From Chiloscyllium plagiosum (taxonomy: Eukaryota), in assembly GCF_004010195.1 (NCBI RefSeq), contig NC_057719.1, forward strand, positions 13,883,753 through 13,935,472: a stretch of DNA of 51,720 bases, in the 5' to 3' direction. Under the pieces are notes generated by a model that made no database searches, had not been told where the DNA came from, and worked only from the letters and a program-made list of their open reading frames with translations. This document shows, one piece after another, positions 94-43,968 of the stretch. The first letter of the stretch is position 1. Each line of letters begins with the position of its first letter. A program made the translations under genes and the position numbers.

Positions 94-891
94 AAAAATC
101 ACACAACACCAGGTTATAGTCCAACAGGTTTAATTGGAAGCACACTAGCTTTCGGAGTGGCGCTCCTTCATCAGGTGATAGTGGAGGGCTCGATCGTAAC
201 AGAATTTATAGCAAAAATTTACAGTGTGATGTAACTGAAATTATACATTGAAAAATTGATTGCCTGTTAAGCCTTTCATCTGTTAGAATACAGTGATAGT
301 TTCACTTTTTTCATTTGTAAATCACAACCTTTTTTAAAAAGTTGCATTCTTGGGTTAGCTGTTAACAATGGTGACAGCAAGACATTGTAACTCTGCATTG
401 TACTATGCTCAAATACTGCATGCATTCATGTAGAACTCTGAGCTCAAAAACTGCATGGATTTATGTAAAACTCCGTTATCTCACTTTTTAGATTGGAATC
501 AATCTAAACATCATGCATAGACAGAGAGGAAGGTGGCTAACATCTTCAACATAATTGTCTAGCTATCACCATTGTTAACAGCTAACCCGAGAATGCAACT
601 TTTAAAAAAAAGGGTTTTGTGATTTACACATGAAAGAAGTGAAACTATCACTGTATTCTAACAGATGAAATGCTTAACAGACAATCAATTTTTCAATGTA
701 TAATTTCAGTTACATCATACTGTAAATTTTTGCTATAAATTCTGTGTTACGATTGAGCCCTCCACTATCACCTGATGAAGGAGCGTCGCTCCGAAAGCTA
801 GTGTGCTTCCAATTAAACCTGTTGGACTATAACCTGGTGTTGTGTGATTTTTAACTTTGTACACCCCAGTCCAACACCGGCATCTCCAAAT
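94..891 (+). mobile_element. Penelope-like element, family A, with ~290-bp inverted arms
   Basis: ~90-380 is the reverse complement of ~555-856. 17-bp TSD CAAGAAATTACAGAGTT at 77-93 and 892-908. Hammerhead core in each arm. Confidence 0.8.
769..803 (+). ncRNA. Minimal type I hammerhead ribozyme motif (family A)
   Basis: CAC-CTGATGA-A-GGAGC-gtc-GCTCC-GAAA-GC-TA-GTG: stem I CAC/GTG, 5-bp stem II, palindromic AGCT helix III. Inverted copy at 143-177 (-). Confidence 0.75.
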
Positions 892-2204
892 CAAGAAATT
901 ACAGAGTTGTGAACGGAGTCCAGTCCATCACACAAACCATCCTTCCAACCATTGACTCACTTCCCACTGCCTTCGGCAAACAGCCAACATAATCAAAGAC
1001 CCCTCCCACACCGGTAATACTCTCTTCAACCCACTTCCATTGGGAAGAAGGTATAAAAGTTTGAAAACACGTACCAACAGATTCAAGAACAGCTTCTTCC
1101 CCGCTGTTATGAGACTTATGAACGGACCTCTCAGAAATTAGAGTTAATCTTTCTCTTTAGCCGTAAGACTATATTCTGCATTCCGTTCTATTAGCCTGTC
1201 ATACTTATGTAACATATGTTTTGTCTGGTTAGTAACTCAGTACTTGTGACAATAATAAATGAAATCAAATTAAACCTCCCACCCAGTTCACTTACCAGTG
1301 ATCCTGATGCTATCACATCCCAGTTACTAACTGTGTGTAGTTGCGGCCCTAAGTTCCAGCAAGTTGTACGTATATATAACATGATATGCTCAGATGATGA
1401 TGAGAATTTTTTCTAATACTGGCAGCAAAATAACTAGATAAGTAGTGATGTCACCATCATAACCATTGGCTCTGATTTCCTAACTGATATTTGCCTGTAT
1501 TTATGCAGCTCGCCTTAAAAGGTTCACTCTATCACACATTTTTCTTAAAATGTGGAAACTTCAAAGCCAAAATTTGCCTCATTTTGCAAAGTTGCCTAAG
1601 ATTGAATCAAGAAATGCCTTTAATTTCAAAACAGGAATCCCTGCCCCTCTCAGCCAAACTATTAGCTGCAACTGATCCTGTAGTCTCTGAATTTAAATCC
1701 ATATTCATCTTTGTAATTGATGCTCTCCTTGATTTAAATAATCAGGAAGAACTAAAAATAAATAAACAGCTGTCATCACTATACCAACTGGAACGGTTAA
1801 GCACCCCAGTGTAGAATTAATTTGGTTTTTGCTTTCCTCTGTTTTGCTCTAAATCAGTGCTGGCAGTCTGAGTGATTAAAACCTATGCAAATGATGTGTA
1901 GCTGGGAGATTGCCTGTCACCATTTGCCCTCTGTTTTTTTTGTTGCACTGTGTAGAACGTTGCTACATGTCTTAATTAGAATGTTAGCAGCCTACAGTAT
2001 GTTTGCTGTACCTCACAATACACTCTGGGTGACTGTGCACCCTGCACAACTTCAATGGACATTGTCTATCGGAGTTATGGCCCCGGCATACTACCCAGCA
2101 CATAATATTCAGGAAATCTTAGCAAACAGCTTGCACTTAGACTTAAAGGGTCCGTGAGTTAGCTTATGCAACCTGTTCTAATACATCTACATTCACACAC
2201 TCCT

Positions 2205-2885
2205 GACAATGCAGAAGTAGGCTATTCAGCCCATCGAGTCTGCACCAATCCTCCAAAGATCATCCTACCCAGATCCACCACCCTGCTAAGCTTATTCCCT
2301 GTAACCCTGCATTTCCCATGGCTAATCCACCCAGCCTGCACGTCCCCTGGATGCAATGGGCAATTTAACATGGCTATCCACCCAGCCTGCACAACTCTGG
2401 ACACAATGAGCAATTTAGCATGGCCCATTCACCTAACTTGCACATGCCTGGACACAGTGGGCAAATTAGGTAAAAACAATGACTGCAGATGCTGGAAACC
2501 AGATTCTGGATTAGTGGTGCTGGACGTCGATTTTGAAGCTCCTTGGATGCTGCCTGAACTGCTGTGCTCTTCCAGCACCACTAATCCAGACAATGGGCAA
2601 ATTAGCCTGGCCAATCTACTTAACCTGCACATCTCTAAACACAATGAGCAATTTAGCATGGCCAATCCAACTAATCTGCACATTTTGGACACAATGGGCA
2701 ATTCAGTGAGGCCACTCCACATAATCTGCACATCTCTGATCTGTAGGAGGAAACCAGAACACCCAGAGGAGACCCACATGAACACGGGGAGAATGTGCAA
2801 ACTCCACACAGTCACCTGAGGGTGAATCGAAGCTGAATACCTAGCACTGTGAGGTAGCAGTGCTAACCACTGAGCCACCATGCCA
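2205..2885 (-). mobile_element. HE1-like SINE with an internal ~51-bp tandem expansion
   Basis: tRNA-like head at ~2820-2885 (-). The unit GGGCAATTTAGCATGGCCAATCCACCTAACCTGCACATCTCTGGACACAAT is repeated about 7 times between ~2317 and 2740. Confidence 0.8.
2470..2590. mobile_element. Short fold-back PLE derivative (family B-related)
   Basis: TCTGGATTAGTGGTGCTGGA / TCCAGCACCACTAATCCAGA inverted arms, flanked by repeated TGGGCAAATTAG. Confidence 0.65.
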
Positions 2886-3039
2886 ATACAACGCTGGCAT
2901 CCACCTGACAAAGTGGAAGATCACTTTAAAAAGATGAGACAAGTACAACCCACGTAATTAGTGCCTCAACAGTCCATTCTTGATCATCGGCAAAGGGGTG
3001 GCTGGTGTTATGACAGTGTTCACGTAGTAATCACCCTGC

Positions 3040-3860
3040 TCACCATCAGACTGTCCCAGATCTCATTACAGGATTAGTCCAAACACAGACAAAAGAAATT
3101 AATTGCAGAAGTGAGGCTGGAGTGACTTTACTTTACTTCAAGGCAGCATTTGAATGAGCCCGAGCAAAATGTGAAGTCAATGGGTAGAAGGCAGAAAGTC
3201 CCTGCTGGTTGACTTTATATAGAATGAAGACAAACAATCATGGTTGGTGGAAATTAGTCTTCTCAATTCCAAACATCTCTGAGGGTGATGCCCTCAAACG
3301 TCTTCCTTTCCTGCAAAAAATAACATTGCCTCCACGATAAGGTGAGAAGTGAATTAAACTGATTTAACTTTATTGTCACATGTACTCACATGAGTACAGT
3401 GAAAAGTTAACAAGTCGCCTTGAGTGAAGTGAACAAGCCACAGGAATCCTGTGGGTTACAAAGCAGGTCAGAGGCTGGGAATTATGTGACGAATCTGACT
3501 CCAACAAGGCACAAGTCAGGAGGGTGATGGGATACTCTCCACTTGCCTGGATAATAGTAACCGCAAACGCATTTAGGGTGCCTGTTACAACTGGGACCAA
3601 GCATTTTGTTTCATTGGCTCCATATCTACCGCCTTGAACATTTCCATGTTCAAACACCAACACACAACGTGTACCATTTGCAAGACGCACTGCCACAAAT
3701 CACCAAGACTCCTTCCCAACCCACTTCCATTGAGAAGGACAAAGCAGAAACTGTTTGGGAACACCATCAACTTCCAAACCACACAACATCCTGATTAGGA
3801 ACCATATTGCCACTCCTTTGCTATCACTGGATCAAAAACATGGAATTTGCTTACTAACTG
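3040..3860 (+). mobile_element. Degraded CR1/L2-group LINE fragment (second family)
   Basis: AAGGCACAAGTCAGGAGGGTGATGGGATACTCTCCACTTGCCTGG (KAQVRRVMGYSPLAW-like). Related to 34920-35880; its tail resumes at ~4800-4920. Confidence 0.5.
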
Positions 3861-3861
3861 C

Positions 3862-4512
3862 TTTTTGCCATTTATATAAACGATTTGGATGTGAACATAG
3901 GAGCTAACATTAATAAGCTTACAGATGACACCAAAACAGAGGTGTAGTGGACAGTGAAGAAGGTTATCTCAGAGTACAATGGGATCCTGATGGGCCAATG
4001 GGCTGAGGAGTGGCAGATTTAATTTGGATAAATGCAAGGTGCTACATTTTGGAAAGGCAAATTAGGGCAGGATTTAGACACTTAATGGTAAGGTCATTGG
4101 GAGTGTTGCTGAAAATTGAGACCTTGGAGTGCAGGTTCATAGTTCCTTGAAAGTGGAGTTGCAGATAGGTAGGATAATGAAAAAGACATTTGGTATGCCT
4201 GCATTTATTGGTCAGTAAATTGACAAGATCTTTTTCCTGTGGTAGGTGAGTCCAAAACTAAAGGGTTTTGGTGAGAGGGAAAAGATGGAAAAGGGATCTC
4301 AGGGACAACTTTTTCATGTAGAGGGTGGTGAGTGTATGGGATGAGCTGCCAGAGGAAGTGCTGGAGGCTGGTACAATTACAACATTTAAAAGGCATCTAG
4401 ATGAATAGGAAGGGTTTAGGGCAATATAGTCCAAGTGCTGGCAAATGGGACTAGATTAATTTAATATATCTGGTTGGCATGGACGAGTTGGACTGTTTCT
4501 GTGCTGTACACC
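3862..4512 (+). mobile_element. CR1/HER1-like LINE 3' fragment
   Basis: RT-region remnant (IYINDLD..DDTK) and the conserved 3' UTR GGCATGGACGAGTTGGAC..GTGCTGTAC. Confidence 0.8.
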
Positions 4513-4773
4513 TTAGATTAGATTAGATTACTTAGATTATTTACAGTGTGAAAACAGGCCCTTCGGCCCAACAAGTCCACACTGACCCACCGAAGCGCAA
4601 CCTACCCAGATCCATTCCCCTACATTTACCCTTTCACCTAACACTACAGGCAATTTAGCATGGCCAATTCACCTAACCTGCACATTTTTGGACTGTGGGA
4701 GGAAACCGGAGCACCCGGAGGAAACCCACACAGACACGGGGAGAACATGCAAACTCCACACAGTCAGTCGCCT
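4513..4773 (-). mobile_element. 5'-truncated HE1-like SINE
   Basis: (TAGAT)n tail and SINE body matching other copies; head absent. Confidence 0.85.
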
Positions 4774-5579
4774 CTATGACTCTATAACGCCGTTGTGGTT
4801 GTATCTCAACAACTTAAACTGCAACAGTTCAAGAAGACACCTCACCACCTACCTTCTCATGTTTAATTAATGATGGGCTATAAATAATGGCCTTGCCAGT
4901 GATATTCACATGCCATGAACAAATTAAAAAAGATTGATTTGTGTGCATCCGCTGTCCACTACATTTCATGCACCCTTTGCTCTTCACAGATCATGACTAA
5001 TGCAATTTCCATTGTCAAACAGAGCCAATAATTTTAATTCTATGCCTTAAAATCTCTCCTGCAGCACAAAACATTGTCACGGAGGGCTGCCTCAGAATAA
5101 AAAGTAGGTCTGGTCTGAAACTCCCTATATTTCCTGTTGGACTGATGGGACTAAAGCTTTAGCTGAACAAAGATTTGAAATTCCTCAGATCCACATGGGT
5201 GTGGTAATGTCACTGGGCTTGTAAGCTAGAGGTTAAAATTCATATTTGCCATCCTGTGGAGTTCAGAACCTCACCAGAACACCACCAGCCTCAAGTTCCC
5301 CTCCAAGCCACTCACCATCCTAAATTGGAAATATATCCACTTTCCTTCATTATTGCAGGCACTAACTCCTGGAATTCCCTTCTTAATGAGATTGTGGGGT
5401 TATTTACAGCACATAGACTGCAGCGGTTCAAGAAGGCAGCTCACGACCACCTTCTCAATGGCATTAGGGATGAGCAATAAAGGCTGGCCCATTTTTAATT
5501 CATTAAAACGATGCAAAAAAAGCCACTCACCCCATCATTTATGCACTGGCTTTCTGAGCATTTTGTCTCAGTGCTAATC

Positions 5580-6010: not shown

Positions 6011-6039
6011 CAATTAACTAAATAAGGAATTAAAAACGC

Positions 6040-6826: not shown

Positions 6827-7597
6827 AATCTGAACACAACCGGACGAATTAGGAGCAGAGGCAGACAATTCAGCCCCTCATGTCTGCTCTGCCAGTCAAT
6901 AAGATATGTGCAATCTGTTTGTAAGACCGTAAGATGGAGAATCATAAGTAGGCCATTCAGCCCCATCTCTGCCATTCAATAAGATCATGGCTGATCTGAT
7001 AATCCTCAAAACTATTTTCTCCCCTTTAATTCCCTGACTGATTACAAATCCGTCTATTTTAGCCTTGAATATACTTAATGACCCAGCTTTGTCTGCCCTC
7101 CATTGAAAGAATTGCACAAATTCACTACCTTTCCAGAGAAGAAATTTCCTCTCATCTCTGTTTTAGAGGGGTGACCCCTTATTCTGACCTTAGACTCTTC
7201 TATAAGCAGAAAGAGCCACTAACTTATTAATACCTATGTCCACCCTGCCAAGTCCCGTAAGAATTGTGTATGCTTCACTTAAGTTCTCTTCTCATTCTTC
7301 TAAACTCCAATGAGTACATGTCCAGCTTACTCAACATCTCCTCATTAATCGATCCCTCCATCCCCAAGACCAACCTAGTGAACAATCTCTGGACTATCTC
7401 CAATGCCAGTATATCTTTCTTTAGATAAGCAAACTAAAACTGTCAAAGCACATAACCTCATATTCCATCTACCAAGTTTTTGTCTGCTCACTTAACCTGT
7501 CTACATCCTTCCATAGACTGTCTGTGTCATCAATTTTTGTGTCATTCACAAACGTAGTATATTTACTTTCCTCATCCAAGTCATCAGTATATATTGC

Positions 7598-8046
7598 AAG
7601 GAGTCCAAGGACCTGCATGTCCTTGGTGGAGTGGAAGGGGGAGTTGAAGTGTTGAGCCATGGGGTGGTTGGGTTGGTTGGTCCGGGTGTCCCAGAGGTAT
7701 TCTCTGAAATGTTCCGCAAGTAGCCGGCCTGTCTCCCCAATATAGAGGAGGCCACATCCGCTGCACCCAATCTGCTCCCCCTCCCACTCCATCAAGGACA
7801 TGCAGGTCCTTGGACTCCTCCATCGCCAGACCATAGCAACACGATGGTTGGAGGAAGAATGCCTCATCCTCCGCCTAGGAACCCTCCAACCACAAGGGAT
7901 GAACTCAGATTTCTCCAGTTTCCTCATTTCCCCTCCCCCCACCTTGTCTCAGCCAAACCCCTCGAACTCAGCACCGCCTCCCTAACCTGTTTTCCAGCAA
8001 CACATTTTCAGCTCTGATCTCCAGCATCTGCAGTCCTCACTTTCTC
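7598..8046 (+). mobile_element. Penelope-like element with GIY-YIG endonuclease remnant, 5' part inverted
   Basis: Minus strand CSGCGLLYIGETGRLLAEHFREYLWDTRTNQPNHPMAQHFNS; plus strand MQVLGLLH..LRLGTLQPQGMNSDF. 15-bp TSD CATCAGTATATATTG at 7583-7597 and 8047-8061. Ends in the family-B pLTR terminus. Confidence 0.85.
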
Positions 8047-8174
8047 CATCAGTATATATTGTAATTAATTGTGACTGATTCCTTTGGCACTCTACGTCAT
8101 AAGTTGCCATCTTGAAAACTTTCCCTCCTATCCCAACTCTCTGTCTTCTATTAGTTAGCCAATCCTCTATCCAT

Positions 8175-8393
8175 TAGGAGAAAGTGAGGACTGCAGATGC
8201 TGGGGATCAGAGTCAAAAGGTGTGGCATTGGAAAAGCACAGCCAGTCAAGCAGCATCCGAGGAGCAGGAGAATTAACGTTTCAAGCATACATGACATTCC
8301 TGATGAAGGGCTTGAGCGCAAAACGTCAATTCTCCTGCTCCTTAGATGCTGCCGGACAGGCTGTGCTTTTCCAGTACCACACTTATTAACTCT
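8175..8393 (-). mobile_element. Fold-back PLE derivative, family B
   Basis: Inverted arms around ~8290. Degenerate HHR CTGATGAAGGGCTTGAGCGCAAAACGTC. 15-bp TSD CAATCCTCTATCCAT at 8160-8174 and 8394-8408. Confidence 0.8.
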
Positions 8394-9817: not shown

Positions 9818-9839
9818 ATGCGTCATCTTCGATATCAAG

Positions 9840-10545: not shown

Positions 10546-10646
10546 CTCTCTATAACAGTTGCATAAACAGTGTCAAAACTCACTCACAATAGTGAGGACT
10601 ATACATTTCTACAGGAATTGATTGTATTTGCATCTTCAAATCGGCC

Positions 10647-12949: not shown

Positions 12950-14345
12950 TTTGATTTGATTTGATTTCAATTTCATTGTCACATGTACACAAGGACAGAT
13001 GTACAGTGAAAAGTGTATCATGGCTCAGAGACCCCCATGTCAGGGTCTAGAGGCCCCCACATCAGGGCCCAGAGACCCCCACATCAGGGACCAGAGACCC
13101 CCACATCAGGGCCCAGACACCCCCACATCAGGGCCCAGAGACCCCCACNNNNNNNNNNNNNNNNNNNNNNNNNNNNNNNNNNNNNNNNNNNNNNNNNNNN
13201 NNNNNNNNNNNNNNNNNNNNNNNNNNNNNNNNNNNNNNNNNNNNNNNNNNNCAGGGCCAAGAGACCCCCACATCAGGACCGAGAGACCCTCCCCATCAGG
13301 GCCCAGAGACCCCTACATCAGGGCCCAGAGACCCGCACGCCAGGGCCAAGAGACCCCCGCACCAGGACCGAGAGACCCCCCATCAGGGCCCAGAGATCCT
13401 CACATCAGGGTCCAAAGACCCCCACATCAGGGCCCAGTGACCCCTAACTCAGGGCCAAGAGACCCCCACATCAGGACCGAGAGAGCCCCACGTCAGGGCC
13501 CAGAGTGCTACATCAGGGCCAAACGACCCCCCATCAGGGCCGATAGACGCCCACGTCAAGGCCGAGAGGCCCCCTCATCAGGGTCGAGAGACCCCCACAT
13601 CAGGGCCAAGAGACCCCCACATCAGGGCCAAGAGAACACCATGTCAGGGCTGAGAGACCCCACGTCAGGGCTGAGAGACCACCATGTCAGGGCTGAGAGG
13701 CCCTCACATCTGGGCCAAGAGACCACCATGTCAGAGTCGAGAGACCCCTTGATCAGGGCCAAGAGACCATCATATCAGGGCTGAGAGAACCCCACAGTGA
13801 GCTGAGAGACCCCCATGTTAAGGCCAAGAGATTCTGCCCGGGGCTAACAGACCCCCACATTGGACTGAGAGACCACACGCAGGGCTAACAGACCCCCACA
13901 TTGAGCTGAGAGAACTCCATGTTAGGGCCAAGAGACCCCACGCTGGGCTAAGAGACCCCATGTAGTGCTGAGAGATCCCCACACATGGCTGAGAGACCCG
14001 CTCGCTGGGCTGAGAGACCACCACACTGACTGAAAGACCCCCATGCTGGGCGGAGAGCCCCGCACACTGGGCTGAAAGTCCTCCTCGCCAGTCTTGGAGG
14101 CCTCCACACCAGACTGGGAAGCCACGGTGCCAAGCCCAAGGCTGCCATGCCAACCCCAGGAGGCCATCACGCCAAGGTGGGAGCTTGCCTTGGTAGGTCT
14201 CTGCTGAGTCTGAGGCCAGGAATCCATGGCCAGGAAAAGAAAGAAGAAGGAATAAAAGAAACATAAAAGAGAGGAAGAAATGAAAAGGAACCAAACGGAG
14301 CAGGCAAGTTCCATTTGAAATGTCCTACTCTGCAGCCAATTTGGA
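12950..14345 (-). mobile_element. Composite non-autonomous retroposon: head, GC-rich VNTR, Rex1/Babar-like tail
   Basis: Minus-strand 3' end CACTTTTCACTGTACATC..GTACATGTGACAATGAAATTGAAATCAAATCAAATC resembles the LINE tail at 1240-1272 and directly abuts the VNTR. No TSD found. Confidence 0.5.
13024..14090. repeat. ~22-bp minisatellite, consensus CATCAGGGCCCAGAGACCCCCA
   Basis: Visible tandem array that degenerates rightwards; contains an N gap at 13149-13251. Confidence 0.95.
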
Positions 14346-16521: not shown

Positions 16522-16737
16522 CCAGTCAGAAGTCACACAACACCAGGTTATGCCCAACAGGTGTATTTGAAATCACAAGGTTTCAGAGCACTGCTCCTTT
16601 GTCAGGTGAAATGAAGCACTACTTTGTCTGATGAAGGGGCAGCACTCTGAAAGCTTGTGATTTCAAATAAACCTGTTGGACTATGACCTGGTGTTGTGTG
16701 ACTTCCGACTCTGTCCACCCCAGTCCAACACCTACAT
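16522..16737 (+). mobile_element. Fold-back PLE derivative, family A variant
   Basis: Inverted arms; decayed HHR CTGATGAAGGGGCAGCACTCTGAAAGCTTGTG; TSD CAAAATA(G/A)CAC at 16511 and 16738. Confidence 0.75.
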
Positions 16738-18764: not shown

Positions 18765-19148
18765 CAGATGTAGGTTTGCTCGCTGAGCTGGGAGGTTCAT
18801 GTTCAGATGTTTCGTCACCATACTAGGTAACATCTTCAGTGAGCCTCAGGACGAAGCATTGCTGATGATTCCTGCTTTCTATTTATATGTTTGGGTTTTT
18901 TGGGTCGGTGATGTCATTTCCTGTGGTGACACCAATTCCTATAGTGATGCCATTTCCTGTTCAGGTAAATCGAGTCCAAGTCAATGTGTTTGTTGACAGA
19001 GTTCCAGTTGGAGACTCCGTCCAGAGGCTCACTGAAGATGTTACCTAGTATGGTGATGAAACATCTGAACATGAACCTTCCAGCTCAGTGAGCAAACCTA
19101 CACCCAGAACCTCAACCTGAGCTACAAATCTTCTCAAAACTCTCTAAC
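18765..19148 (+). mobile_element. Fold-back PLE derivative, family C
   Basis: 18767-18848 is inverted relative to 19024-19103; HHR core in both arms; inserted in the (CTATGATT)n LINE tail. Confidence 0.75.
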
Positions 19149-20339: not shown

Positions 20340-20830
20340 AGTTAAAAATCACAGCTCCTTGGATGCTGCCTGACCTGCTGCGCTTTTCCAGCAACACATT
20401 TTCAACACCAGGTTATAGTCCAACAAGTTTAATTGGAAGCACACTAGCTTTCAGAGCACTGCTCCTTTATCAGGTGGTTGCGCGGTGCTCCGAAAGCTAG
20501 TGTGCATCCAGTTAAACCTGTTGGACTATAACCTGGTGTTGAAAATGTGTTGCTGGAAAAGCGCAGCAGGTCAAGCAGCATCCAAGGAGCAGGAGAATCG
20601 ACGTTTCGGGCATGAGCCCTTCTTCAGGAATCTGATTCCTGAAGAAGGGTTCATGCCCGAAATGTCGATTCTCCTGCTCCTTGGATGCTGCCTGACCTGC
20701 TGCGCTTTTCCAGCAACACATTTTCAGCTCTGATCTCCAGCATCTGCAGGCCTCACTTTCTCCTATAACCTGGTGTTGTGTGATTTTTAACTTTGTACAC
20801 CCCAGTCCAACACCGGCATCTCCAAATCTC
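20340..20830 (+). mobile_element. Family A fold-back PLE containing a nested family B fold-back PLE (20541-20763)
   Basis: Outer TSD GACTATTCAC (20330-20339 / 20831-20840); inner TSD TATAACCTGGTGTT (20527-20540 / 20764-20777). Confidence 0.85.
20596..20631 (-). ncRNA. Minimal hammerhead ribozyme motif (family B)
   Basis: Minus strand ATTC-CTGAAGA-A-GGGC-tcat-GCCC-GAAA-CG-TC-GATT: GUC triplet, palindromic ACGT helix III, weak stem I. Mirror copy at 20635-20670 (+). Confidence 0.7.
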
Positions 20831-21175
20831 GACTATTCACTCTAATCATGCCCCTCGTGATATAATAAACCTCTATAGGGTCACCCCTCAGGCTCCAACC
20901 CTCCAGGGAAAATAACCCCAGCCAATCAGACTCTCTCTATAGCTCAAACCCTCCAACTCCGGCAACATCCTTGTAAATCTATTCTGAGCCCTTTCAAGTT
21001 CCATAACATCTTCCCAATAGCAACTCCTATACACAATGCACTGACCAATAGAGACAAGGGTACAAAATGTGTTCTTCACTATCCCATCTACCTTCGATTC
21101 CATTTTTAAGGAATTATGAAGCTGTCCTCCAAGATCTTTTTGTTCAACAACCCTCCCCAGGACCTTACCATTACC
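20831..21175 (-). mobile_element. CR1 fragment, continuing from 20290-20339
   Basis: ORF 20888-21103: DVMELERAQNRFTRMLPELEGLSYRE. Confidence 0.8.
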
Positions 21176-21960: not shown

Positions 21961-22965
21961 TCAGTACATAAGTCCTGCTGTGATTTGCTCTACCAAAATG
22001 TAGTACCTCACATTTTTGCTTTTAAATGCTGCAAAAATAAAAATGTACTTTTTAAATTTTGTAACTTCCAGGAAGGACTGCGACGGTCAAGAATCACATG
22101 TCCCTTAATCACTTGACGGAGTTAAAGAAATAGGCATTAGGTTAAGATGAATTAAATCATGCATCACAAGTAGTCATCATTATTTATTCAAAGGCAATTT
22201 GGGACTTCTTACTAATTAGTATTAAGAATTAAGTTTATGAAGGGAACAATTATCATAAAACAAGGAATACACATAATAAACCATTAAGCATAATGAGTAG
22301 TGATAGTTGTCTATGTCGTTGTGCATGCATTTATAATTGCAATGAAGAAAATGTACAGTGGAAATTGTGTATAGTGTGAGCTGGTGTTGAAGAATGTTTA
22401 GAAATGTGGATTACACATGGCATGCAATGTAAATGGTTTGTATCTTATAAACATGGATCATATGTGGTATGCCATATAATGGGATATGTGTATGTCTGGA
22501 TTATGGTAAGAGTAGATATTTGTAAGAAAAGAACATGTTAGCAATTAGAACGCAATAAGACCAATTCCTTGAATCTTCTCCTTTCCAACAAGGCTTTACA
22601 TTAGTGCAGAAGCAGGGAGAGTCACCCCAGTATATGTTGAGAATGAGGAAAGCTCTTGTGGTGCAGTGGTCGTATCTCCACCTCTGAGCTAGAAGTCCCA
22701 GGTTCGCATTCCACCTGCCCCAGAGGTGTTACTAACTTCTCTGAATAAGCTGAGTGGAACTGTCTACATGGGAATGCAATCTGAATGGAGATTATACTCA
22801 TGTGCTGCATTACAATAGGAGATACACTATGTGTTGAGATGGATCCAATATTCACTCCCCTTGAGTCACAATCTCAGAGAGAAGTCAAATTCGTCATGGC
22901 ACTTCTTGTGGGTCAAGAAACATGGTAAATATTGAAAGAAATGTGCAGCAGCTTACTTTTAGTGA

Positions 22966-23062
22966 TGATTTGGAGATGCCAGTGTTGGACTGGGGTGTAC
23001 AAAGTTAAAAATCACACACATCAGGTTATAGTCCAAGCGCCGCTCCTTCATCAGGTGTTCTG
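22966..23062 (-). mobile_element. Internally deleted family A PLE
   Basis: 12-bp TSD TACTTTTAGTGA at 22954-22965 and 23063-23074. Confidence 0.75.
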
Positions 23063-24017
23063 TACTTTTAGTGAGCTAATGTGGACAACTGGGCATTCAC
23101 GTTACTGCACTTTGGGTTCACTTTGACCTAGTGATCTGGAACTGAAACCCCAGCAAATTGGCAAGAAAACTTAGGCTTGCAACCAACTCATATTGAATAA
23201 ACAAGTTAAATAAAGGAGGTTATCACTTGGAGATGAAGAAGAGAATCTGCTATTAGAGTACGTGTGGCTTTGAGTGAACCAATACAGAAAGGTCATTAAA
23301 TTCAGAGAAATTGTAAAATCACTCGGATGATGTCATGCTTATAATTTATACTTATGAGGTGAGGCAACAGATAGTCACTGGAGCAAAGACGGCTAAGTGG
23401 TTTTTAATAGAGGTTTAATGGAGGATTTTGAAATTCAGATAGCTACGGTAACGAAGATGGAAAACTATTTCTTTTGGTTGGCGAATCAATGCTGACACAT
23501 CTTCAATTTCAACAAGTCACTTCAAGAGTGAAGAAGGAGATTTTTGGAGCATGAATTACTTAACGCTGGGTGAGGCAGAGACATTGAATCTTTTCAGGGA
23601 AAATGCAGATTGGTTAATGTGTTCTTGCTAAATTCCATCTGGGATCAACAGAGCGATGCTGGTATGTCATTGAGTACAGTTTTATATTCAAATGTCATAT
23701 CCCACAATGCATATTCTTCTTCAATGCGACAGAATCAGACAAGAAGTGAGATGAAAACAAATAAAGGGAGAAAGATTTTCTTTATAGATTTTGTGAGATC
23801 TCCCTATTGAGTGTCGATTGATCTGTCTGCATCATCCAGCAGCACAATCCAAGAGTTCATTCTGTGCAACTCACTTCACTCCGGGACAATGACAACAAAA
23901 TGGATTTTGTAGCATTCATTGAACAGATGCTCTAAAGTTCCTTTTCAAAACTTCATTCATCAGTTGCTAGACTGGCATTGATTGCCTCTAATTGCCCACA
24001 GGGTTGTTAAGTCAACT

Positions 24018-24393
24018 AGGAGAAAGTGAGGACAGCAGATGCTGGAGATCAGGGTCGAAAATGTGGAGCTGGAAAAGCACAGCAGGTCAAGCAGCACCCG
24101 AGGAACAGGAGAGTCGACATTTCAGATATAAGCCCATCATCAGGAATGAGGCTTGTAAGCCAAGGGGTGGTGAGATAATTGGGAGGGGGTGGGGCTGGGA
24201 GAAGTAGCTGAGAATGCGATAGGTAGATGGAGGGGGCGTTATGGTGATAGGTCGGAGGAAATAGTGGAACGAACAGATGGGAAGGAAGATGGACAGGTGG
24301 CGCGGTGTCAAGTTGGAAGGTTGGATCTGGGATAAGGTAGGGGGAAGGGTAATGAGGAAACTGGTGAAATCCATATTAATCTCATGTGGTTGG
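24018..24393 (-). mobile_element. Family B PLE 3' end, inserted in a DeuSINE-like element (~23965-24560)
   Basis: Includes the ORF end (MDFTSFLITLPPTLSQ, cf. 7900-7960), the pLTR and a decayed HHR; repeated AGTCAAC flanks. Confidence 0.8.
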
Positions 24394-25661: not shown

Positions 25662-25856
25662 ATAGCGAGTTTTGAGAAGATTTGTAGCTCTGGTTGAGGT
25701 TTTGGATGTAGGTTTGCTTGCTGAGCTGGAAGGTTCATTTCCAGGCGTTTCGTTACCTTACTAGGTAACATCTTCAGTGGACCTCATGCGAAGCAATGCT
25801 GAAAATTCCTGCTTTCTATTTATATGTTTTGGTTTCTTTGGGTTGGTGATGTCATG
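25662..25856 (-). mobile_element. Family C PLE fragment with hammerhead motif
   Basis: Minus strand CCA-CTGAAGA-T-GTTACC-tagtaa-GGTAAC-GAAA-CG-CC-TGG at ~25741-25780. Confidence 0.75.
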
Positions 25857-26040: not shown

Positions 26041-26664
26041 TCTTTAGATTTTTTAACCGTTATGTTCATCATAGAGAGAGGTGCAAATCGAAAATATTTA
26101 TTATTTCAGAGCTGGATGGAATATCTTCCTTTCAAAATGTCACAGACTGAGCAATATTTTTCTTGCTCATGGACAGCTAGCTGGCTTAAAAAAACACCAG
26201 TCGATCCTTCAGATCGGCATGTTGTACATTTTCAGTTTCCAGCCTTTAATTTTCTGTTTCAATTTAGGAGACAATTTCAGTCAGTGATGGTCAAGGAGTA
26301 GACAGGGGCACAGATAAATGTTTCATGTTGTCCAGGCAGTGCAAAATATTGTCAGCTCATGTTTAAACAAGTTACATTTTGTGGATGATATCCAACTAGA
26401 GAACATTCCGAAATATGCAGGCTCCTATCCTGTGAATTCTCATTTACTTATCAACACACCACAGCCCACCAATATACCATTTCTCATATTTAATGGAATA
26501 TTTTAGAATAGCAAATAGCTAGAGGAAACTACTGGTAAAGCCAGAAATCTTAAATAAAATCAAAAGTTGCTGGAAGCACTGGAAAAGCCAATGAAACTCT
26601 TAATAAAAAAATTAAAGTTGATGGCGCCTCATCAAGTCAGCAACAGGTTGTATTTATAAAGAAA

Positions 26665-27225
26665 ATATACTGTGGAAGGTGGAAATCTGAAACAAAAGGA
26701 GAAGCTGCTGGAGAAACTCAGCAGGTTTGAGCACATCTGTGGAGAGAGAAACCGAATTAATGTTTCGAGTCTGAAATGACTCTTCTTCTGAAGTGCAAGG
26801 GGCTGGAGAATGATGGTGTTGGCAGAGGTGGGAAAGGAGTGAGTGGAACAGGTGATCAGGGGGCCTAGAGCAAAAGATAATAGAGTGCTAAAGGTGGGAA
26901 AGGAGTGAAGGAGATGTAAAATTACATCTTTACAATCACACCACTTTACATTGGCAGCTATTTTACACCTCTATCCCTCCTTCGCCACCATTGCACTCCC
27001 TTCGTCTTTCCCTCTGGGCACCATCTTTTCCACTCACTCCTCTGCTGCCCATGGCATATTATTGTTTATTCACTCACTAACAGTCTAAGAACGCCACTGA
27101 CTACAAACCACCATTTTGAAGCCCCTTTCGGCTCTGAAAAAGAGACATATCAGGCTCGAAACATTAACTCTGTCCAGAGATGCTGCCAGATCTGATGAGT
27201 TTCTCTAGCAATTTCTTCATTTCCT
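26665..27225. mobile_element. Old fold-back PLE derivative, family D
   Basis: 26705-26790 is inverted relative to 27130-27215; decayed HHR cores (GAAGAAGAGTCatttcaGACTCGAAACATT on -, CTGAAAAAGAGACatatcaGGCTCGAAACATT on +). Confidence 0.6.
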
Positions 27226-27329
27226 TTTTGCATTTATAAATCATCTTTCACATAACAACATCTGTCAAGGCTGTTCATGGAGCCTTTGTCAATCAAACTA
27301 TGATGTAAGAAGATAAGCAAATGCATATT

Positions 27330-28072
27330 TGTTATGGACCAGGCCAGACCCCCTCAAAACATTTCAAAGAAGCAGTCTGGACCTTAACCATGCTAGCTGT
27401 TTTAAGCAGGTGTAGAGTGGATATCCCAGGAGGGATGCAGTTGTTCAAACCACTTGGTTTTAAACAAAATAGAATTTATTTACAAGATTACCGAATGAGA
27501 CACAAACAAAAGAGAGCAGAATACAGACTAACTTAACCTATCCAAAATCCCAGCAGATTATGATTCCTGAAGAAAGGCTTATGTCTGAAATGCTCCTCGG
27601 ATGCTGCCTGGCCTGCTGTGCTTTGCCAGCACATTTTTCAACTCCCAGCAGATTATCCCAACTTAACACTGCCGTTCCAAATACTTGCAACAATCCCCAT
27701 AAACATTCCTTGCCACAAAAGGTAAAATCAAACACAGGGTCTTACAGGAGAGAAATCAAAGAGAGGGACCAGCCTGGACTTGCTTCTTCCATGTGGCTGT
27801 TTCTTGGGCCATCAGCCTCAAAGCTAGCTGCCTGCTTTCAGGGAATTGCCAGACCACCAAAACCAAACCAAAGCAGAGAAAAGCCGAGCTGGGAGAACTG
27901 GCCACTCCCCTTTCATTATACGAGTGTTTTTTTTAAAAAAAAAACAAACTTGAAAGTCTTTTCCAGAGGCAGCATCTGTTAGCAAAAACCAAATTGGCCC
28001 TAGAGGTCTTTATGACCTCCTGAAAAGAAAATAAGCACAGCTTCACCTTGTTAAAGGAGCAGCGTTATCACG
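27330..28072. mobile_element. Solo LTR (4-bp TSD, Gypsy/ERV-like)
   Basis: Begins TGTTATG and ends TTATCACG (decayed CA); TSD TATT at 27326-27329 and 28073-28076; terminus repeated at ~32064-32090. Confidence 0.65.
27562..27642 (+). mobile_element. 81-bp family B PLE remnant inside the LTR
   Basis: 14-bp TSD TCCCAGCAGATTAT at 27548-27561 and 27643-27656. Confidence 0.8.
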
Positions 28073-31954: not shown

Positions 31955-32058
31955 CATGAAGAGTGTGGTGCTGGAAAAGCATATCTGGTCAGCAGCATCC
32001 GAGGAGCAGGAGAGTCGATGTTTCGAGCATCAGGAATTCCTCTTCATCAGGAATTCAG
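31955..32058 (-). mobile_element. Family B PLE fragment
   Basis: GTGGTGCTGGAAAAGC..GAGCAGGAGAGTCGATGTTTCG; duplicated CATCAGGAATTC at the end. Confidence 0.7.
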
Positions 32059-32659
32059 GACACTGTGATGAAGCTGCTCCCTTAACAAGGTTCTGTTGTT
32101 CTGGGTTTTTTTTTCAGAGAGCAGCTCCGTCATAATGCATTCTCTGAAAACAAAAGTAACACGTCTCACTCAGCATTGTACATTTTTTTCAATCACGCAG
32201 GAGTTTGGAAGCCTATTGTCTTGTATGGCTTTCATTGTGACAATGCCTCAACCAATTAGTTGACTTGACAACTAATGAGCATTAATTTCTCCTGTATAAT
32301 TTGCTGTGATCATTGGAAACTTGGAGTTGCATTTATCTAGACGAGTGCAAAATGAAAAGCTTCTGTTAAGTGTCTCTGCAGTAATATTCCTACATTGAGA
32401 CTTTTTCTTTCTCAAAATAACATGGTAAGAAAGCATTATGTTTGCATTTTTCATTTCGAAATACTCTAGGACTGTTTTAATTGGAAATGGTCACAACAGG
32501 CATCAGTCAAATGAATGCAAGGGTGATATTTTCTAACTTTGTTTGTAAGATAAATGATCACCCATCTTACATCTGAAGATTTAATCCAAAATGTAAAGGG
32601 TTTTCTTCAATTGCATGATCAATATTGTTGTGTTTTTGTCCTGTCAGAAATAAATTGTG

Positions 32660-33872: not shown

Positions 33873-34015
33873 AAGGAGAAAGTGAGGACTGCCGATGCTG
33901 GAGAGTCAGAGTCAAAAAGGGTGGTGCTGGAAAAGCACAGCAGGTCAGGCAGCATCTGAGGTGCAGGAGAATCATTGTTTCAGGCTGAAGCCCTTCATCA
34001 GGAATCCTTCATCAG
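33873..34015 (-). mobile_element. Family B PLE single pLTR
   Basis: AGGAGAAAGTGAGGACTGC..CCCTTCATCAGGAAT; duplicated CCTTCATCAG at the end. Confidence 0.75.
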
Positions 34016-34342
34016 TAGAAATAAGAACATGAGTAGGTCATGTAGCCCTTCAAGCCTGCTCTCCATTCAATAGGATTATGGCTGATCAATATTCCTTACA
34101 TTAATTTAACTGACCACTTGAACTAACCCTGAATGTGAGCATGAGATGATGATGTATGTAAGACAAGAACCATTTCCCCGGAAATATCATTGGATTAACC
34201 TGCTGTCAATCATGTCACCTTATCATATTTGATTGGTCTTTTCTTGTAATTAAGGCTGTGCTGTCTCATAAAAAAACATATAAAAATTGCTTATTGTTCA
34301 ATTGTAATTGCTCAATTTCATCACAGAACACAGAAGTCTTGT

Positions 34343-35880: not shown

Positions 35881-36298
35881 GAACTATCAAACAGGCAGTG
35901 CCCCTCTTCTGCAGTTATGTTCGAGATCAGGTGTCCTTGGAGAGGGAGAACGTGGTGTCTACCTTCCCTCTTGATGCCTGTAGGGAGAAGTGGGCACTGT
36001 GGGGGATGGAGTGCTTTACTTGCCCCTCCAATTCTAATTTAATCTCTATCCTCTCCCTTCTTCATGATTTTATCCAGTTTTGCTTGTTACTGGTTCACTG
36101 GGTGTTTTCCTGGTGGTACAAGGTATGGAATAAAGTTTTTGCACAGTGGTCTCTTTCTAAAAGAAAAAAGTAAGCAGCAAGTTCAGAGTCTCTTCACTGT
36201 AGGAACTGACTCCGAGCTGGGCTGGCCACAGCCAGTATCCTGTGGACCAGTAAATAAAAGGTGACTTGGTGACGGAAGGAAAATACAACTATCAAACA

Positions 36299-36503
36299 TG
36301 ATTTGGAGATGCCGGTGTTGGAGTGGGGTGTACAAAATTAAAAATCACACAACATCAGGTTATAGTCCAACAGGTTTAATTGGAAGCACGCTAGCTTTTA
36401 GAGCGACGCTCCTTCATCAGGTGGTTGTTGAAGGAGCAGCGCTCCGAAAGCTAGTGCTTCCAGTTAAACTTATTGGACTATAACCTGGCGTTGTATGATT
36501 TTT
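36299..36503 (-). mobile_element. Family A fold-back PLE
   Basis: Inverted arms around ~36425; TSD AACTATCAAACA at 36287-36298 and 36504-36515. Confidence 0.8.
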
Positions 36504-38706: not shown

Positions 38707-39520
38707 ATAGAGTCATAGATTTGTGCAGCACGGAAACAGACCCTTCAGTACAATTCGTCCACACCGACCAGATATCCTAAATTAATCTAGTCCTATTTTA
38801 CCAGTACCTGGCCCATATTCCTCTAAACCCTTCTTATTCATATACCCATCCAGATGCCTTTTAAATGTTATAGCTTTCAGCCTCCACCACTTCCTCTAGC
38901 TGCTCATTCCATACACGCACCACCCTCTGCCTGAAAAAGTTGCCCCTTAAGTCCCTTTTAAATCTTTCCCTGCTCACCCTAAAGCTATGTCTCTAGTTCT
39001 GGACTCCCCCATCCCAGAGAGAAGACCTTGTCTATTTATCCTATCCATGTCCCTCATGATTTTGTAAACCTCTATAAAGTCACCCCTCAGCCTCAGGGAA
39101 AATAGCCCCAGCCTGATCAGCATCTCCCTATAGCTCAAATCCTCCAAACCTGGCAACATCCTTGTAAATCTTTCCTGAACCCGTACAAGTTTCACAACAT
39201 CCTTCTAATAGGAAGGAGACCAGAATTGCATGCAATGTTCCAAACGTGGCCTAATCAATGTTCTGTACAGCCACAGCATGACCTCCTAACTCCAGTACTC
39301 AATACTCTGTCCAATAAAAGAAAGCACACCAAACGCCTCCTTCACTACCCTATCTACTTTCAAGGAGCTATGAACATGCACTCCAAGGTCTCTTTGTTAG
39401 GTAACGCCCACGAGGACTTTACCATTAAGTGTATAAGTCCTGTCCTGATTTGCCTATTCCAGAATGCAGCACCTCACATTTATCTAAATTAAATTCAATC
39501 TGCCCCTCCTCAGCCCAGTT
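38707..39520 (-). mobile_element. CR1/HER1-like LINE 3' portion, nested in a second-family LINE tail
   Basis: RVQERFTRMLPGLEDLSYRE and FNLDKCEVLH. Confidence 0.9.
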
Positions 39521-40699
39521 GCTGTTGAGAAGGTGGTAGGGAGCAGCCTTCTTGAACCACTGCAGTCCAATCAAAGCAGGTAGACTGACAACGCTGCCAG
39601 AGAGTGAGTTCCAGCATTCTGACCCAGTCACACTGAAGGAATGGTGATATTTTTCCAAGTCAGGATGGTGAGTTGCTTGCCGGAGTATCTGATCTACTTC
39701 ACACTACCAGCACAGAAGGACACGCAGATTTCACTGGGCTATCGGACATGTTTTCTATCCCTGATACCACTGAGGAACCCCCAAAGGATAGCCTTCAGCA
39801 GAACTGAAACAACAAAATACTATTGCAAAACTAAATCATCCTGTCTTATCTGAGGTAATTGGTGTACTGTGAATGGAGCAATCACTGACAACACAGAAGA
39901 ACATACAGTGTGAGAAAAGAGATCCGACAGGTCTAACCTCTTGATAGAGATCAGATTCATGTTCAACGCAATATGTCTTCCATGAAAGACGTTCATGAAG
40001 TCAAAGATTTTCCAGATGGAAAACGAGTCCTCAACAAAAGACCTTTATGAGTTAAAGGATTGTCCAGAGGAGAAATAAACATATAATCAAGGTCAACAAG
40101 CCTCCGACCAGCAATGCCTTGACCTGTCAAGTCCAAATGTCTCCCCACCCACACCGCATCCCCCACCCCACCCACCCAATATCCTTGAAGTATTGTCAAA
40201 TCATCAGTTCATTTGAATTTAGTGTGAAGCTATAGTGATAAATGTAATATGGTTAGTTTTACAACTTTGAAAAAGCTTGTGGAGTATATAAGTTGCATTG
40301 TATAAGGTCATGGATATAAAAGAGTTAATCTACATGTGAAAGAGATGATCCACCCATTCTCATATATAGCAGGCAGGGGGAAAGGATGAGAAAGATGATC
40401 ATTCACGGTAAGCTCAGCCATGTCTAGGAATGGAACCTATACTGTTGGCACTACCCCACATCACGAAGCAACTATCCAGCCAACTGAGCTAACCATGGCC
40501 TTCTCATCAGTGTCACAACAGAGAGGATTTTTTTGATTTGAAAGCCTTCTTAAGAGAAACAAGTGACAATCTGGGTACCTTCTGGAAAAGCAATAAGGTT
40601 CAGGCTTGGAGGACTGAAGGGCCTGTTCCTGGGCTGTAAATTTTCTTTGTTCTTTGTTATTTTATCCAGTAGCATGAGGTCATTGGGTAAATGGACACC

Positions 40700-41648
40700 A
40701 ACAATGCATTCAACGTGGAGTGTTAAGGATTTAGATGGAGAGGAATTTCTAAGTGTGCACAAGAAAATTTTCTGATTCAGTATGTGGATGTACCTACTAG
40801 AGAAGGTGCACAACTTGACCTACTCTTGGGAAATAAGGCAGGGCAGGTGACTGAGGTGTCAGTGGGGGAGAACTTTGGGGCCAACGACCATAATTCTATT
40901 AAATTTAAAATAGTGATGGAAAAGGATAGACCAGATCTAAAAGTTGAAGTTCAAAATTGGAGAAAGGCCAATTTTGACAGTATTAGGCAAGAACTTTTGA
41001 AAGCTGATTGGGGGTAGATATTCGCAGGTAAAGGGACGGCTGGAAAATTGGAAGCCTTCAGGAATGAGATAACGAGAATCCAGAGAAAGTATATTCCTGT
41101 CAGGGTGAAAGGAAAGGCAGGTAGGTGTAGGGAATGCTGGATGACGAAAGAAATTGAGGGTTTGGTGAAGCCACAGAAAATGAGAGAGATACTAAATGAG
41201 TATTTTGCATCAGTATTTACTGTGGAAAAGGACATGGAAGATATAGACTGTAGGGAAATAGATGGTGACATCTTGAAAAATGTCCATATTACAGAGGAGG
41301 AAGTGCTAGATGTCTTGAAATGCATAAAGGTGGATAACTCCCCAGGACCTGATCAGGTGTATCCTAGAAGTCTGTGGGAAGCTAAGGAAATGACATAAAA
41401 GAGACCTAAGAGGCAACTTTTTCACACAGAGGGTGGTACGTGTATGGAATGAGCTGCCAGTGGAAACTGGTACAATTGCAACATTTAAGAGGCATTTGGA
41501 TGGGTATATGAATAGGAAGGGTTTGGAAGGATATCGACCGGGTACTGGCAGGTGGGACTAGATTGGGTTGGGATATCTGGTCGACATGGACAGGTTGGAC
41601 CGAAGGGTCTGTTTCCGTGCTGTACATCTCTATGTCTCTATGACTCTA
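40700..41648 (+). mobile_element. Internally deleted CR1 LINE: endonuclease/tether region joined to the 3' end
   Basis: PTREGAQLDLLLGN..GANDHNSI, ILNEYFASVFT, SPGPDQVYPR, then a jump to FTQRVV and the tail. Confidence 0.9.
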
Positions 41649-42892
41649 AATACCCATCTGGAGTTTTTTTTTACCTTGGGTGATCATCCTTGATTCCAAA
41701 GGTACTTGGCATGGTCAGCACAAGTGGTCACTGTGGATCACAGGGTTTCAGCTCCACCAACCCACCCCGATTCGTTCAATTCATTTTCACGGCTTGATCA
41801 ATGGGATTCTGGGCTGACATCATTCTGATAGTTGGTGTTGCACCAACAGCCAGAGGCTGTTCCATTTTCTGAGTAGCCTTTTGTCGCACCTTGCCTTGAA
41901 ACAATTCAACTGTGTAGCAGGATTGAGAATAAATCATGAGAAAAGCCAGAACTTGGGGAAAAGAAATCAAACGAAAAGCACTTCCGTTGTTACAAAATGC
42001 CATCTGCAGTGGCGAAGTGTGAGGGAGTGAGATGACAGAGAGAGTCGTGTGTCACAACAGGTCAAGATAAAAGCATCTAAATCTGCAGCGCCAAGGAAGC
42101 CAACACCAGGCAGCACTACTCAAAAGAGTGAGCAGCGCCAAGGGCCATTTTGTTCCTGTTTATTACTTTGTGCTCTTGGAGTAAACATAATTAAGTTGTT
42201 GCTCCTGGCTTCAACGTGTCTCTTGCACTTCAGTTAATTCCTTGAATTGAAGAGATTGCTTTATGTGCTTTCTGGTTGGTTGCTTGTCTCTTACCTGAGA
42301 TTGATATGAGAATTTACTTTTCTTTGCCCCCACTTTTACTCACCAGGTTTGTCAATACCTGCTTCCGAGCTCAGTTGGAGCGACTGTATTTATTTTAACC
42401 CTCAGTGTGACTTGCTCAAAACGCAACGGATTTACCCGAGTAATATTCCGGGAAACACTGTTCAACACCAGTAACACGCCCACAAAACTCTTGCCTCCTT
42501 GACTTGGGTCTCTGCAATGGCCAATGCATCGTCCCATCTATGTTATAACAATTCAACCAGCCTTTGAGGCTCCTTGTAGGCCTGGGATACAAACTGCAAT
42601 GATTTCATTCCAACACCGCACCAAGCCACGTTCATCTCTGCATGGGAGCTCTGAAAGTGACTGCGGATTTGAATTTCTGTGCCTTCACATCACTGCAGGA
42701 TACAACAGATGGTATTTTCAATATTCCCTGTATGGTCCTGTGCAGTCAATGGCTAAATACATGGCAGGTGAAGTATAATGTGGACAAAAGAGAGTTATCC
42801 ACTTTGGGAACAAAAAAAACAGGAAGGCAGGTTATTATCAGAACGATAGTAAATTTGGAAAGGGGGCAGTACAATGAGACCTGGGTGCCCTT

Positions 42893-43207
42893 GTAGATTA
42901 CATTACTTACAGTGTGGAAACAGGCCCTTCGGCCCAACAAGTCCACACCAACCCGCCGAAGCACAACCCACCCAGGCCCATTCCTCTACATTTACCCCTT
43001 CACCTAACACTATGGGCAATTTAGCATGGCCAATTCACCTGACCTGCACATTTTTGAACTGTGGGAGGAAACCGGAGCACCTGGAGAAACCCACGCAGAC
43101 ACGGGGAGAATGTGCAAACTCCACATAGTCACCTGAGGTGAGAATTGAAGCCAGGTCTCTGGCACTGTGAGGCAGCAGTGCTAACCACTGTGCAACCGTG
43201 CTGCCCA
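42893..43207 (-). mobile_element. Full-length HE1-like SINE
   Basis: Head, body and tail. Confidence 0.9.
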
Positions 43208-43225
43208 CACAAGTGCTGAAGGCAA

Positions 43226-43344
43226 GTGCCCTGTAGTGTGCAGGTTGGGTGGATTAGACATGGGAAATGTAGGGTTACAGGGATATGGTGGGCTGGTCCA
43301 CTTCGCGGGGTTACTGCACAGTAGGGATTCTGTGACTTGTACAG
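43226..43344 (+). mobile_element. 5'-truncated SINE variant, same subtype as 44479-44773
   Basis: 16-bp TSD CAAGTGCTGAAGGCAA at 43210-43225 and 43345-43360. Confidence 0.75.
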
Positions 43345-43447
43345 CAAGTGCTGAAGGCAAAATCATGCAGGTGCAGTAGGCAGTGAAGAAGGTAAATGGT
43401 ATTTTGGCCTTCATAACAAGAAGACTCAACTGCAGGACAGGGATTTA

Positions 43448-43968
43448 TTAGAATCCCTGCAGTGTGGAAACAGGCCCTTCAGCCCAACAAGTCCACACTA
43501 ACCCTCTGAAGAGTAACCCACCCAAACCCATTCCCCTACTCTGTATTAACCCCGACTACTGCAATTGACCTACACACCCCTGAACACTATTGGCAGTTTA
43601 GCATGGCCAATTCACCTGACCTGCAATATCTTTGGATCATGGCAGGAAACCAGAACAGGGAGTAAGTGAGGGCTGCAGATGCTGGAGATCATAGCTGAAA
43701 ATGTGTTGCTGGAAAAGCGCAGCAGGTCAGGCAGCATCCAAGGAGCAGGAGAATCGACGTTTCAGGCATAAGCCCTTCCTGCTCCTGCTCCTTGACCTGC
43801 TGCGCTTTTCCAGCAACACATTTTTCAGGAAACCAGAACACCCAGGGGAACCCACATGGACACGGGGAGAATGTGCAAATTCCACACAGACAGTCACCCA
43901 AGACTGGAATTGAACTCAGGTCCCTGGCACTGGGAGGCAGCAGTACTAACCACTGAGCTACCATGTTG
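43448..43968 (-). mobile_element. HE1-like SINE with a nested family B PLE (43658-43825)
   Basis: PLE TSD CAGGAAACCAGAACA at 43643-43657 and 43826-43840. Confidence 0.85.

Follow-up and report, generated by a model that had tools for sequence, protein, structure and literature searches.

Penelope-like insertions in the window

We analyzed a 51,720-bp stretch of the genome of the shark Chiloscyllium plagiosum (assembly GCF_004010195.1, contig NC_057719.1, positions 13,883,753 to 13,935,472; hereafter the window) for short insertions related to Penelope-like elements (PLEs). The stretch is repeat-rich vertebrate DNA with a GC content of 43%. An initial annotation had described about 16 such insertions, sorted into four dissimilar families (A to D), as fold-back elements each carrying a minimal hammerhead ribozyme. 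PLE-type end sequence was indeed present at all 16 coordinates, and we found two further insertions: part of an A arm (1-60) and a fold-back related to B (E; 2470-2593). The total is 17 insertions plus one more that is cut off by the window start; together they occupy 4,692 of the first 45,000 bases (∼10%). The fold-back shape claimed for all of them applied to 10 of the 16, the other six being single-armed. Arms vary in length from ∼40 to 510 nt and point outward from a central head-to-head junction, the centre of which varies between copies.

The family A fold-back at 94-893 (plus strand; A94) consists of an inverted tail-less arm (94-384) and a direct arm with tail (385-893), enclosed by 17-bp target-site duplications (TSDs; 77-93 and 892-908). 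Its direct arm holds the best-kept minimal type I hammerhead (769-803, plus; core from 772, predicted cut after 800), a polyadenylation [poly(A)] signal region (812-852, plus; ATTAAA at 812-817, addition site at ∼830, GU/U-rich downstream element), and the family A tail (856-893, plus). The tail lies between two classes of 3' end (∼855-858 and 893), which we take to be starts of reverse transcription. The tail-less A arm cut by the window start (1-60, plus; 64/66 identity to the A reference) stops ∼34-41 nt before the tail end. The remaining A copies are a fold-back of a diverged subfamily with an AATAAA signal and an imperfect TSD (16522-16737; A16522), a fold-back containing a nested B copy (20340-20830; 10-bp TSD), a single-arm copy with an internal deletion through the hammerhead (22966-23062, minus; 12-bp TSD), and a fold-back at 36299-36503 (12-bp TSD).

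Family B comprises fold-backs at 8175-8393 (15-bp TSD; cores decayed), 20542-20762 (nested in A; 16-bp TSD; intact hammerhead at 20627, minus), and 43658-43825 (15-bp TSD; arms beginning inside or past the core). Its other members are single tail-less arms at 27562-27642 (plus; 14-bp TSD) and 31957-32060 (minus; B31955; TSD not clear), a single arm with tail at 33874-34017 (minus; B33873; TSD not clear), and two copies with coding sequence described below. Family C is represented by a fold-back at 18765-19148 (10-bp TSD) and a single-arm copy with tail at 25663-25855 (minus; 7-bp stem II; cut-site U altered; C25662), family D by one fold-back at 26661-27231 with arms ∼74% identical and a 9-bp TSD. 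The E fold-back has a 12-bp TSD and is without a hammerhead core; its host site is a run of tandem 50-bp repeats (2317-2737) that resemble the 3' part of the short interspersed nuclear element (SINE) of the window.

Families A, B, and C have nothing in common downstream of the core, so that for these three the proposed dissimilarity stood. In contrast, a profile built from B alone recovered both D arms (E values, 8e-7 and 5e-6) and still found them, weakly, once the hammerhead columns were removed (0.002 and 0.04). D is therefore a distant relative of B, giving three lineages rather than four, and sequence comparison suggests that the window holds at least three: A; B with D and E; and C. A weak profile match at 45092-45186 (E value, 0.002) was dropped, as the B-only profile did not recover it.

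The origin of these insertions is most visible in B7598 (7597-8047), where a single 15-bp TSD encloses an inverted GIY-YIG endonuclease segment (7598-7771, minus), a direct segment running to the endonuclease end (7776-7922, plus), an internal deletion that took out the hammerhead, and the B tail (7990-8047). Of 22 candidate proteins, 3 matched a 56-residue fragment encoded at 7595-7762 (minus), two from Chiloscyllium punctatum (91% and 78% identity) and one from Leucoraja erinacea (62%), and both B7598 arms aligned to these homologs (tblastn E values, 6e-31 and 5e-14). The homologs carry reverse transcriptase (RT) motifs, RT being present in P0001 and P0002, and a cysteine linker; their Pfam GIY-YIG matches fall just below the curated cut-off, and P0002 also has a sub-threshold RVT_1 match. 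The linker motif, CX2-5CxxC, lies upstream of GIY-YIG in P0002 and in a metagenome locus described below (L002), and the B7598 fragment stops short of it. Such a linker is tied to the Neptune and Nematis clades (PMC8557442). Within the window there was no RT match, the 56-residue fragment alone had no Pfam match, and the long interspersed nuclear element-like open reading frame (ORF) fragments gave none either among five window ORFs searched. The feature that marks endonuclease-bearing (EN+) PLEs, a CCHH GIY-YIG endonuclease joined to the terminal repeat, was found in family B, and a second, single-arm copy (24017-24393, minus; B24018; 7-bp repeat) runs from the endonuclease C-terminal region through the 3' untranslated region to the tail.

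When metagenome contigs were searched with the A hammerhead pattern, two loci (L001 and L002) were returned, both belonging to one PLE that aligns to family A over 36 nt only, with flanks that do not align. L001 has an inverted RT segment (RVT_1 E value, 4.5e-5), and the other locus has a GIY-YIG-like frame ∼750 nt upstream of the hammerhead (tblastn E value, 1e-13 to P0002). The match to the A hammerhead holds by construction, whereas the PLE nature of both loci does not. At these loci (L001 1-1050, L002 1-1470) the hammerhead, nearly identical to that of A, has a stem I of 5 bp and is followed by AATAAA; inversion junctions are present as well.

The GIY-YIG fragment in B, the TSDs, and a metagenome PLE sharing the A-type hammerhead bear out the PLE origin that the initial annotation had proposed. 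Its further proposal of a distinct class of non-autonomous ribozyme retroelements fared worse, as B7598 and B24018 run into endonuclease-coding or upstream PLE sequence and no tandem monomers were found in the window. Since a GIY-YIG fragment lies inside a B copy, the most suitable reading of the copies is that coding PLEs were inserted with 5' truncation. They are probably dead-on-arrival products of at least three lineages of endonuclease-bearing PLEs in the shark genome.

Ends of the insertions and a model for their formation

The 10- to 17-bp TSDs that had been reported for many copies proved exact around 10 of the 16, against a background of 1.3% in 3,000 random 60x60 window pairs. Shorter repeats flank D (9 bp), B24018 (7 bp), and A16522 (7 exact bp, or ∼11 with one mismatch, by eye), and no convincing TSD was found at B31955, B33873, or C25662. 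The TSDs are richer in AT (64% versus 57%). The 3' ends of the arms fall into two classes ∼30-45 nt apart, and each of the 10 copies that have two terminal-repeat arms combines a tailed end with a tail-less one, the tail of D and E being defined by their own longer arm. Under independent even odds, a crude null, this asymmetry has a chance of ∼1 in 1,000. Both end classes recur genome-wide: when public contigs from two organisms (∼88,000 contigs per run) were aligned to 380-1500, we counted 1,473 and 1,492 loose ends at 893 and 456 to 564 at each listed position from 855 to 858. In the same alignments, family A reaches upstream of 400, with a depth gradient that resembles truncation.

These ends also bear on whether the inverted arms could have arisen as hairpins after insertion, through fold-back replication errors, or could be the terminal inverted repeats of DNA transposons similar to miniature inverted-repeat transposable elements. 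The inverted arms are near-perfect, as either process would have it, and a mirrored B piece at 20354-20404 could have been copied after insertion. However, both arms sit within TSDs that vary from 9 to 17 bp, the tail accounts exactly for the difference between the two ends, and one copy contains GIY-YIG sequence, so we give such origins practically no credence. The mirrored piece belongs to the fold-back at 20340-20830, in which the left A arm holds 51 nt of B at a position that exactly mirrors the site where B inserted; this piece differs from the B right arm at 0 of 51 positions, and the A arms differ from each other at 5 of 60. Either hairpin-templated copying followed the B insertion or an A-plus-B composite was mobilised.

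We then compared the TSDs at tail-less ends with the continuation of the template. In nine copies, 13 contiguous bases matched where 3.1 were expected (P, ∼7e-4), and counting all matching bases gave 31 of 72 versus 18.2 expected (P, ∼1e-3). This test has an n of 9 with hand-set boundaries, leaves out E and D, uses the TSD of A16522 set by eye, and includes two copies scored zero through homopolymer slippage. Past the tail (893 onward), the plurality sequence of the loose ends starts with TGACTA in all four runs, with an agreement of only ∼0.4, and three TSDs (20829-20840, 22954-22966, and 36287-36299) begin with part of TGACTA. This hexamer may represent both the beginning of the ORF (ATG) and another microhomology. 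We also noted that two A insertions lie only ∼17 bp apart (window 1-93) and that a B copy is inserted within an A terminal repeat at 20541; PLEs may prefer PLE ends as targets.

We propose that the GIY-YIG endonuclease would cut the target with a stagger of 9-17 bp. One nicked strand would prime reverse transcription at the distal start, producing the tailed end, and the other would prime at the proximal start, assisted by 2-4 nt of pairing, producing the tail-less end. Both cDNAs would usually halt close to where the hammerhead begins, before being joined head to head. The hammerhead would thus be inherited from the parent terminal repeat, where it is probably a weak ribozyme assisted by dimerization or protein.

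This arrangement closely follows described systems. The canonical insertion unit of EN+ PLEs consists of a pseudo-long terminal repeat, an adjacent inverted 5'-truncated copy, and a 30- to 40-bp tail at one end (PMC8557442; PMC3846280). The window copies share with these units the head-to-head arms, the single tail, TSDs of ∼9-10 bp and above, heavy 5' truncation, and GIY-YIG; they differ in being mostly reduced to two terminal arms and in their density (∼10% of 45 kb). In the Anolis carolinensis Poseidon element PAc, the tail lies between two RT starts, and both target strands are cut and extended (PMC11167929). The window insertions resemble PAc in their two internal RT starts, AT-rich targets, and the absence, among the positions listed, of a pile-up of RNA read ends where the hammerhead would cut. 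In contrast, the closest proteins to B have a Neptune-type linker cysteine motif, and family A has a poly(A) site inside its terminal repeat, none being described for PAc in the accessible parts of that report. The insertions look like a known kind of element, namely, the usual truncated back-to-back PLE end pieces, in further shark families, and not like a new type of mobile element.

A dedicated source for the short copies would be mini-elements, in which solo terminal repeats give rise to a short RNA, running from just before the hammerhead to the tail, that is mobilised in trans by PLE protein. The 5' ends of 10 arms by script plus 2 by inspection, out of 27, fall at -7 to +5 of core base C3; summed contig depth at 798-873 is ∼10-fold that of upstream bins, which is not a copy number; non-autonomous PLE derivatives have already been described; and the A-plus-B composite might have been remobilised. 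However, the poly(A) site at ∼830 would end such an RNA before both start sites, junction centres differ among copies, and long copies with endonuclease sequence exist. Moreover, clustering of 5' ends would equally result from the 5' end of a full-length mRNA or from pausing of RT at the hammerhead. We therefore regard mini-elements as unlikely.

Hammerhead motifs and their predicted folds

We scanned positions 1-45,000 on both strands for the motif CTGANGA-N-stem II (≥4 bp)-GAAA, with 300 dinucleotide shuffles as a control. The motif occurred 10 times, versus a shuffle mean of 0.17 (maximum, 2); with NN-T-H added, 7 times versus 0.03; and with a G10.1-C11.1 closing pair as well, 5 times versus 0 in 300 shuffles. 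The four stem II pairings reported earlier (GGAGC/GCTCC, GGGC/GCCC, GTTACC/GGTAAC, and GAGTC/GACTC), all closed by G-C, and the AGCT and ACGT mini helix III were found exactly as claimed. The hammerhead at 769-803 (plus) has a 3-bp stem I, a 5-bp stem II, an extra base after A9, and a palindromic AGCU helix III. The identification as minimal type I hammerheads was upheld, with conserved core, extra base, G-C closing pair, and palindromic helix III complete in only three arms, 772 (plus), 174 (minus), and 20627 (minus). The notion that every element carries a hammerhead was not: B7598 has none, the D core reads CAGA, and many arms are decayed or start inside the core. Rfam returned no hammerhead family among 16 matches (E values up to 10), only chance matches to microRNA hairpins. 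Searching viral contigs for the B- and C-type hammerhead patterns, and genome contigs for the B-type pattern, gave 0 matches.

Minimal hammerheads of metazoan PLEs occur either as two motifs on opposite strands, separated by 100-700 bp, or as solo motifs from truncated PLEs (PMC4209133). Those of the window agree with them in the extra base between 9 and 10.1, the G10.1-C11.1 pair, the palindromic 15.2-16.2, and the presence of several families per genome, mostly as solo copies; they differ in a stem I of only 2-4 bp and in their host, sharks not being mentioned in the accessible parts of that report. In the literature that we searched, which left out most subscription journals, we found no paper on shark PLE hammerheads.

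In isolated-arm RNA folds, stem II had a pairing probability of 0.65-1.0 in 5 of 6 cases, compared with 0.0 in 4 of 4 whole fold-back RNAs. Thus, fold-backs are unlikely to act as ribozyme-driven masters; in fold-back RNA, the models suggest that the ribozyme is probably buried by pairing with its own antisense arm, and inert. The predicted fold of 745-832 did not form stem II (pairing probability, 0.03). A designed double hammerhead of 762-806 scored -17.7 kcal/mol versus -32.7 for the best alternative duplex, so a dimer is not favoured by folding. Hammerhead cleavage as the origin of the copies' 5' ends was also rejected, since all arms begin more than 5 nt away from the cut site.

The latter observation applies as well to non-LTR (long terminal repeat) retrozymes, tandem monomers that self-cleave into circular RNAs that are copied back into the genome. 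The window copies and retrozymes have in common type I hammerheads and descent from PLE terminal repeats (PMC7229834; bioRxiv 10.64898/2026.07.22.740005), and the latter source places retrozymes in one chondrichthyan genome. However, the definition in that source calls for two or more units in succession, and PMC7229834 associates retrozymes with canonical hammerheads that are tandemly repeated. The window contains no head-to-tail tandem hammerhead units and so falls outside the definition; it has minimal hammerheads and opposite-strand arms, no arm begins at the cut site, and no pile-up of read ends was found there among the positions listed. Retrozymes are thus a very improbable source.

Several points nevertheless weigh against truncated insertion of coding PLEs. 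In the window, no coding sequence is joined to family A or D, and in family C there are only ∼17 codons (18960-19012, minus) that may resemble a PLE endonuclease C terminus. Stem covariation, predicted for these hammerheads, was found between families, where paired stem II differs, but not within A, where compensatory change was absent (two-sided change in 0 of 5 pairs). The narrow zone of 5' ends before the core, in ∼10-12 of 27 arms, is equally expected from a dedicated short template, and the A-plus-B composite at 20340 could have moved as one unit. Finally, a preference of the endonuclease for tail-like DNA is an alternative that would yield an identical overlap signal, and the overlap between TSD and template contrasts with the priming without homology reported for Anolis PAc in vitro (PMC11167929).

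Other repeats surround the insertions. The A94 flank at 912-1290 consists of other high-copy repeats, with a contig depth far above that of the unique 1292-1500. A tRNA-like SINE, which we take to be the shark HE1 SINE, is present as 17 matches of at least 60 nt to one SINE copy in the window. A 30-bp minisatellite of ∼151 copies fills 47206-51720; its unit matches an internal segment of the SINE (80-96% over 27-48 nt), so the array is probably SINE-derived. Arrays of 22-bp and 25-bp minisatellites at 12970-14075 and 45609-46702 each lie beside or span an assembly gap.

A polyadenylation site in family A

RNA evidence came from one raw single-cell poly(A) run, labelled with the species of the best-matching DNA data, of which ∼2% was used; 3,556 reads aligned out of 12,955,460 records. 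Only 94 aligned reads were ≥99% identical, so the RNA comes mostly from family A copies other than the window locus. Coverage from 570 to 835 was biased 4- to 18-fold toward the orientation expected of hammerhead-sense RNA and was about even from 836 to 911. Reads running into poly(A) numbered 372 at 829 and 460 at 832, and we read these ends as one poly(A) site after base 830, 13 nt after ATTAAA (812-817) and before the GU/U-rich tract. The poly(A) reads may also be host transcripts using cryptic sites. Depth was level over the cut site (1,158 and 1,198), showing that the RNA reads cross it uncut, and no pile-up of read ends was seen there among the positions listed. A 30-nt 3' product would probably have been lost from the library, so read depth is no measure of cleavage. 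An AATAAA stands at the equivalent place in the diverged A subfamily, and one follows the cut site of L002 by 19 nt. No poly(A) hexamer occurs within ∼60 nt after the cut site in B, C, or D; the feature is thus not general.

The family A poly(A) site lies ∼30 nt past the hammerhead cut site and upstream of both putative RT starts. The positions listed for the DNA alignments did not include poly(A)-like loose ends at 829-832. Because the site precedes both 3' end classes, the 3' end of the polyadenylated RNA cannot supply the genomic 3' ends, which must derive from read-through RNA or from an upstream repeat at the mRNA 5' end. Transcripts of Penelope and of the Chlamys element start inside the terminal repeat (PMC2377424; PMC8557442). 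It is conceivable, as a tentative idea that we would not yet favour, that the family A terminal repeat has a retroviral-like U3-R-U5 layout, with transcription starting just before the hammerhead, in the zone that contains the starts of most short arms, poly(A) ∼30 nt past the cut, and both RT starts downstream. We found neither a U3-R-U5 or strong-stop layout nor a terminal-repeat poly(A) site of PLEs in the literature searched, with the same restriction on subscription journals.

If this layout were true, the mRNA would have a redundant R segment with one hammerhead per end, and target-primed copying would start near the mRNA 5' end and run off after ∼90-130 nt. The short copies would then represent "strong-stop" products that became integrated, and making a full-length copy would require either strand transfer through R or circularisation there by a hammerhead dimer.

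The transposition cycle of PLEs and the role of their hammerhead are still open questions according to PMC8557442 and PMC11167929. New here is the mapping of a family A poly(A) site between the ribozyme and both RT starts; its position, the one-tail asymmetry, and the short target overlap together provide specific predictions on the PLE mechanism. For the shark host, the dispersed copies may serve as cryptic poly(A) sites or as sources of double-stranded RNA in host transcripts.

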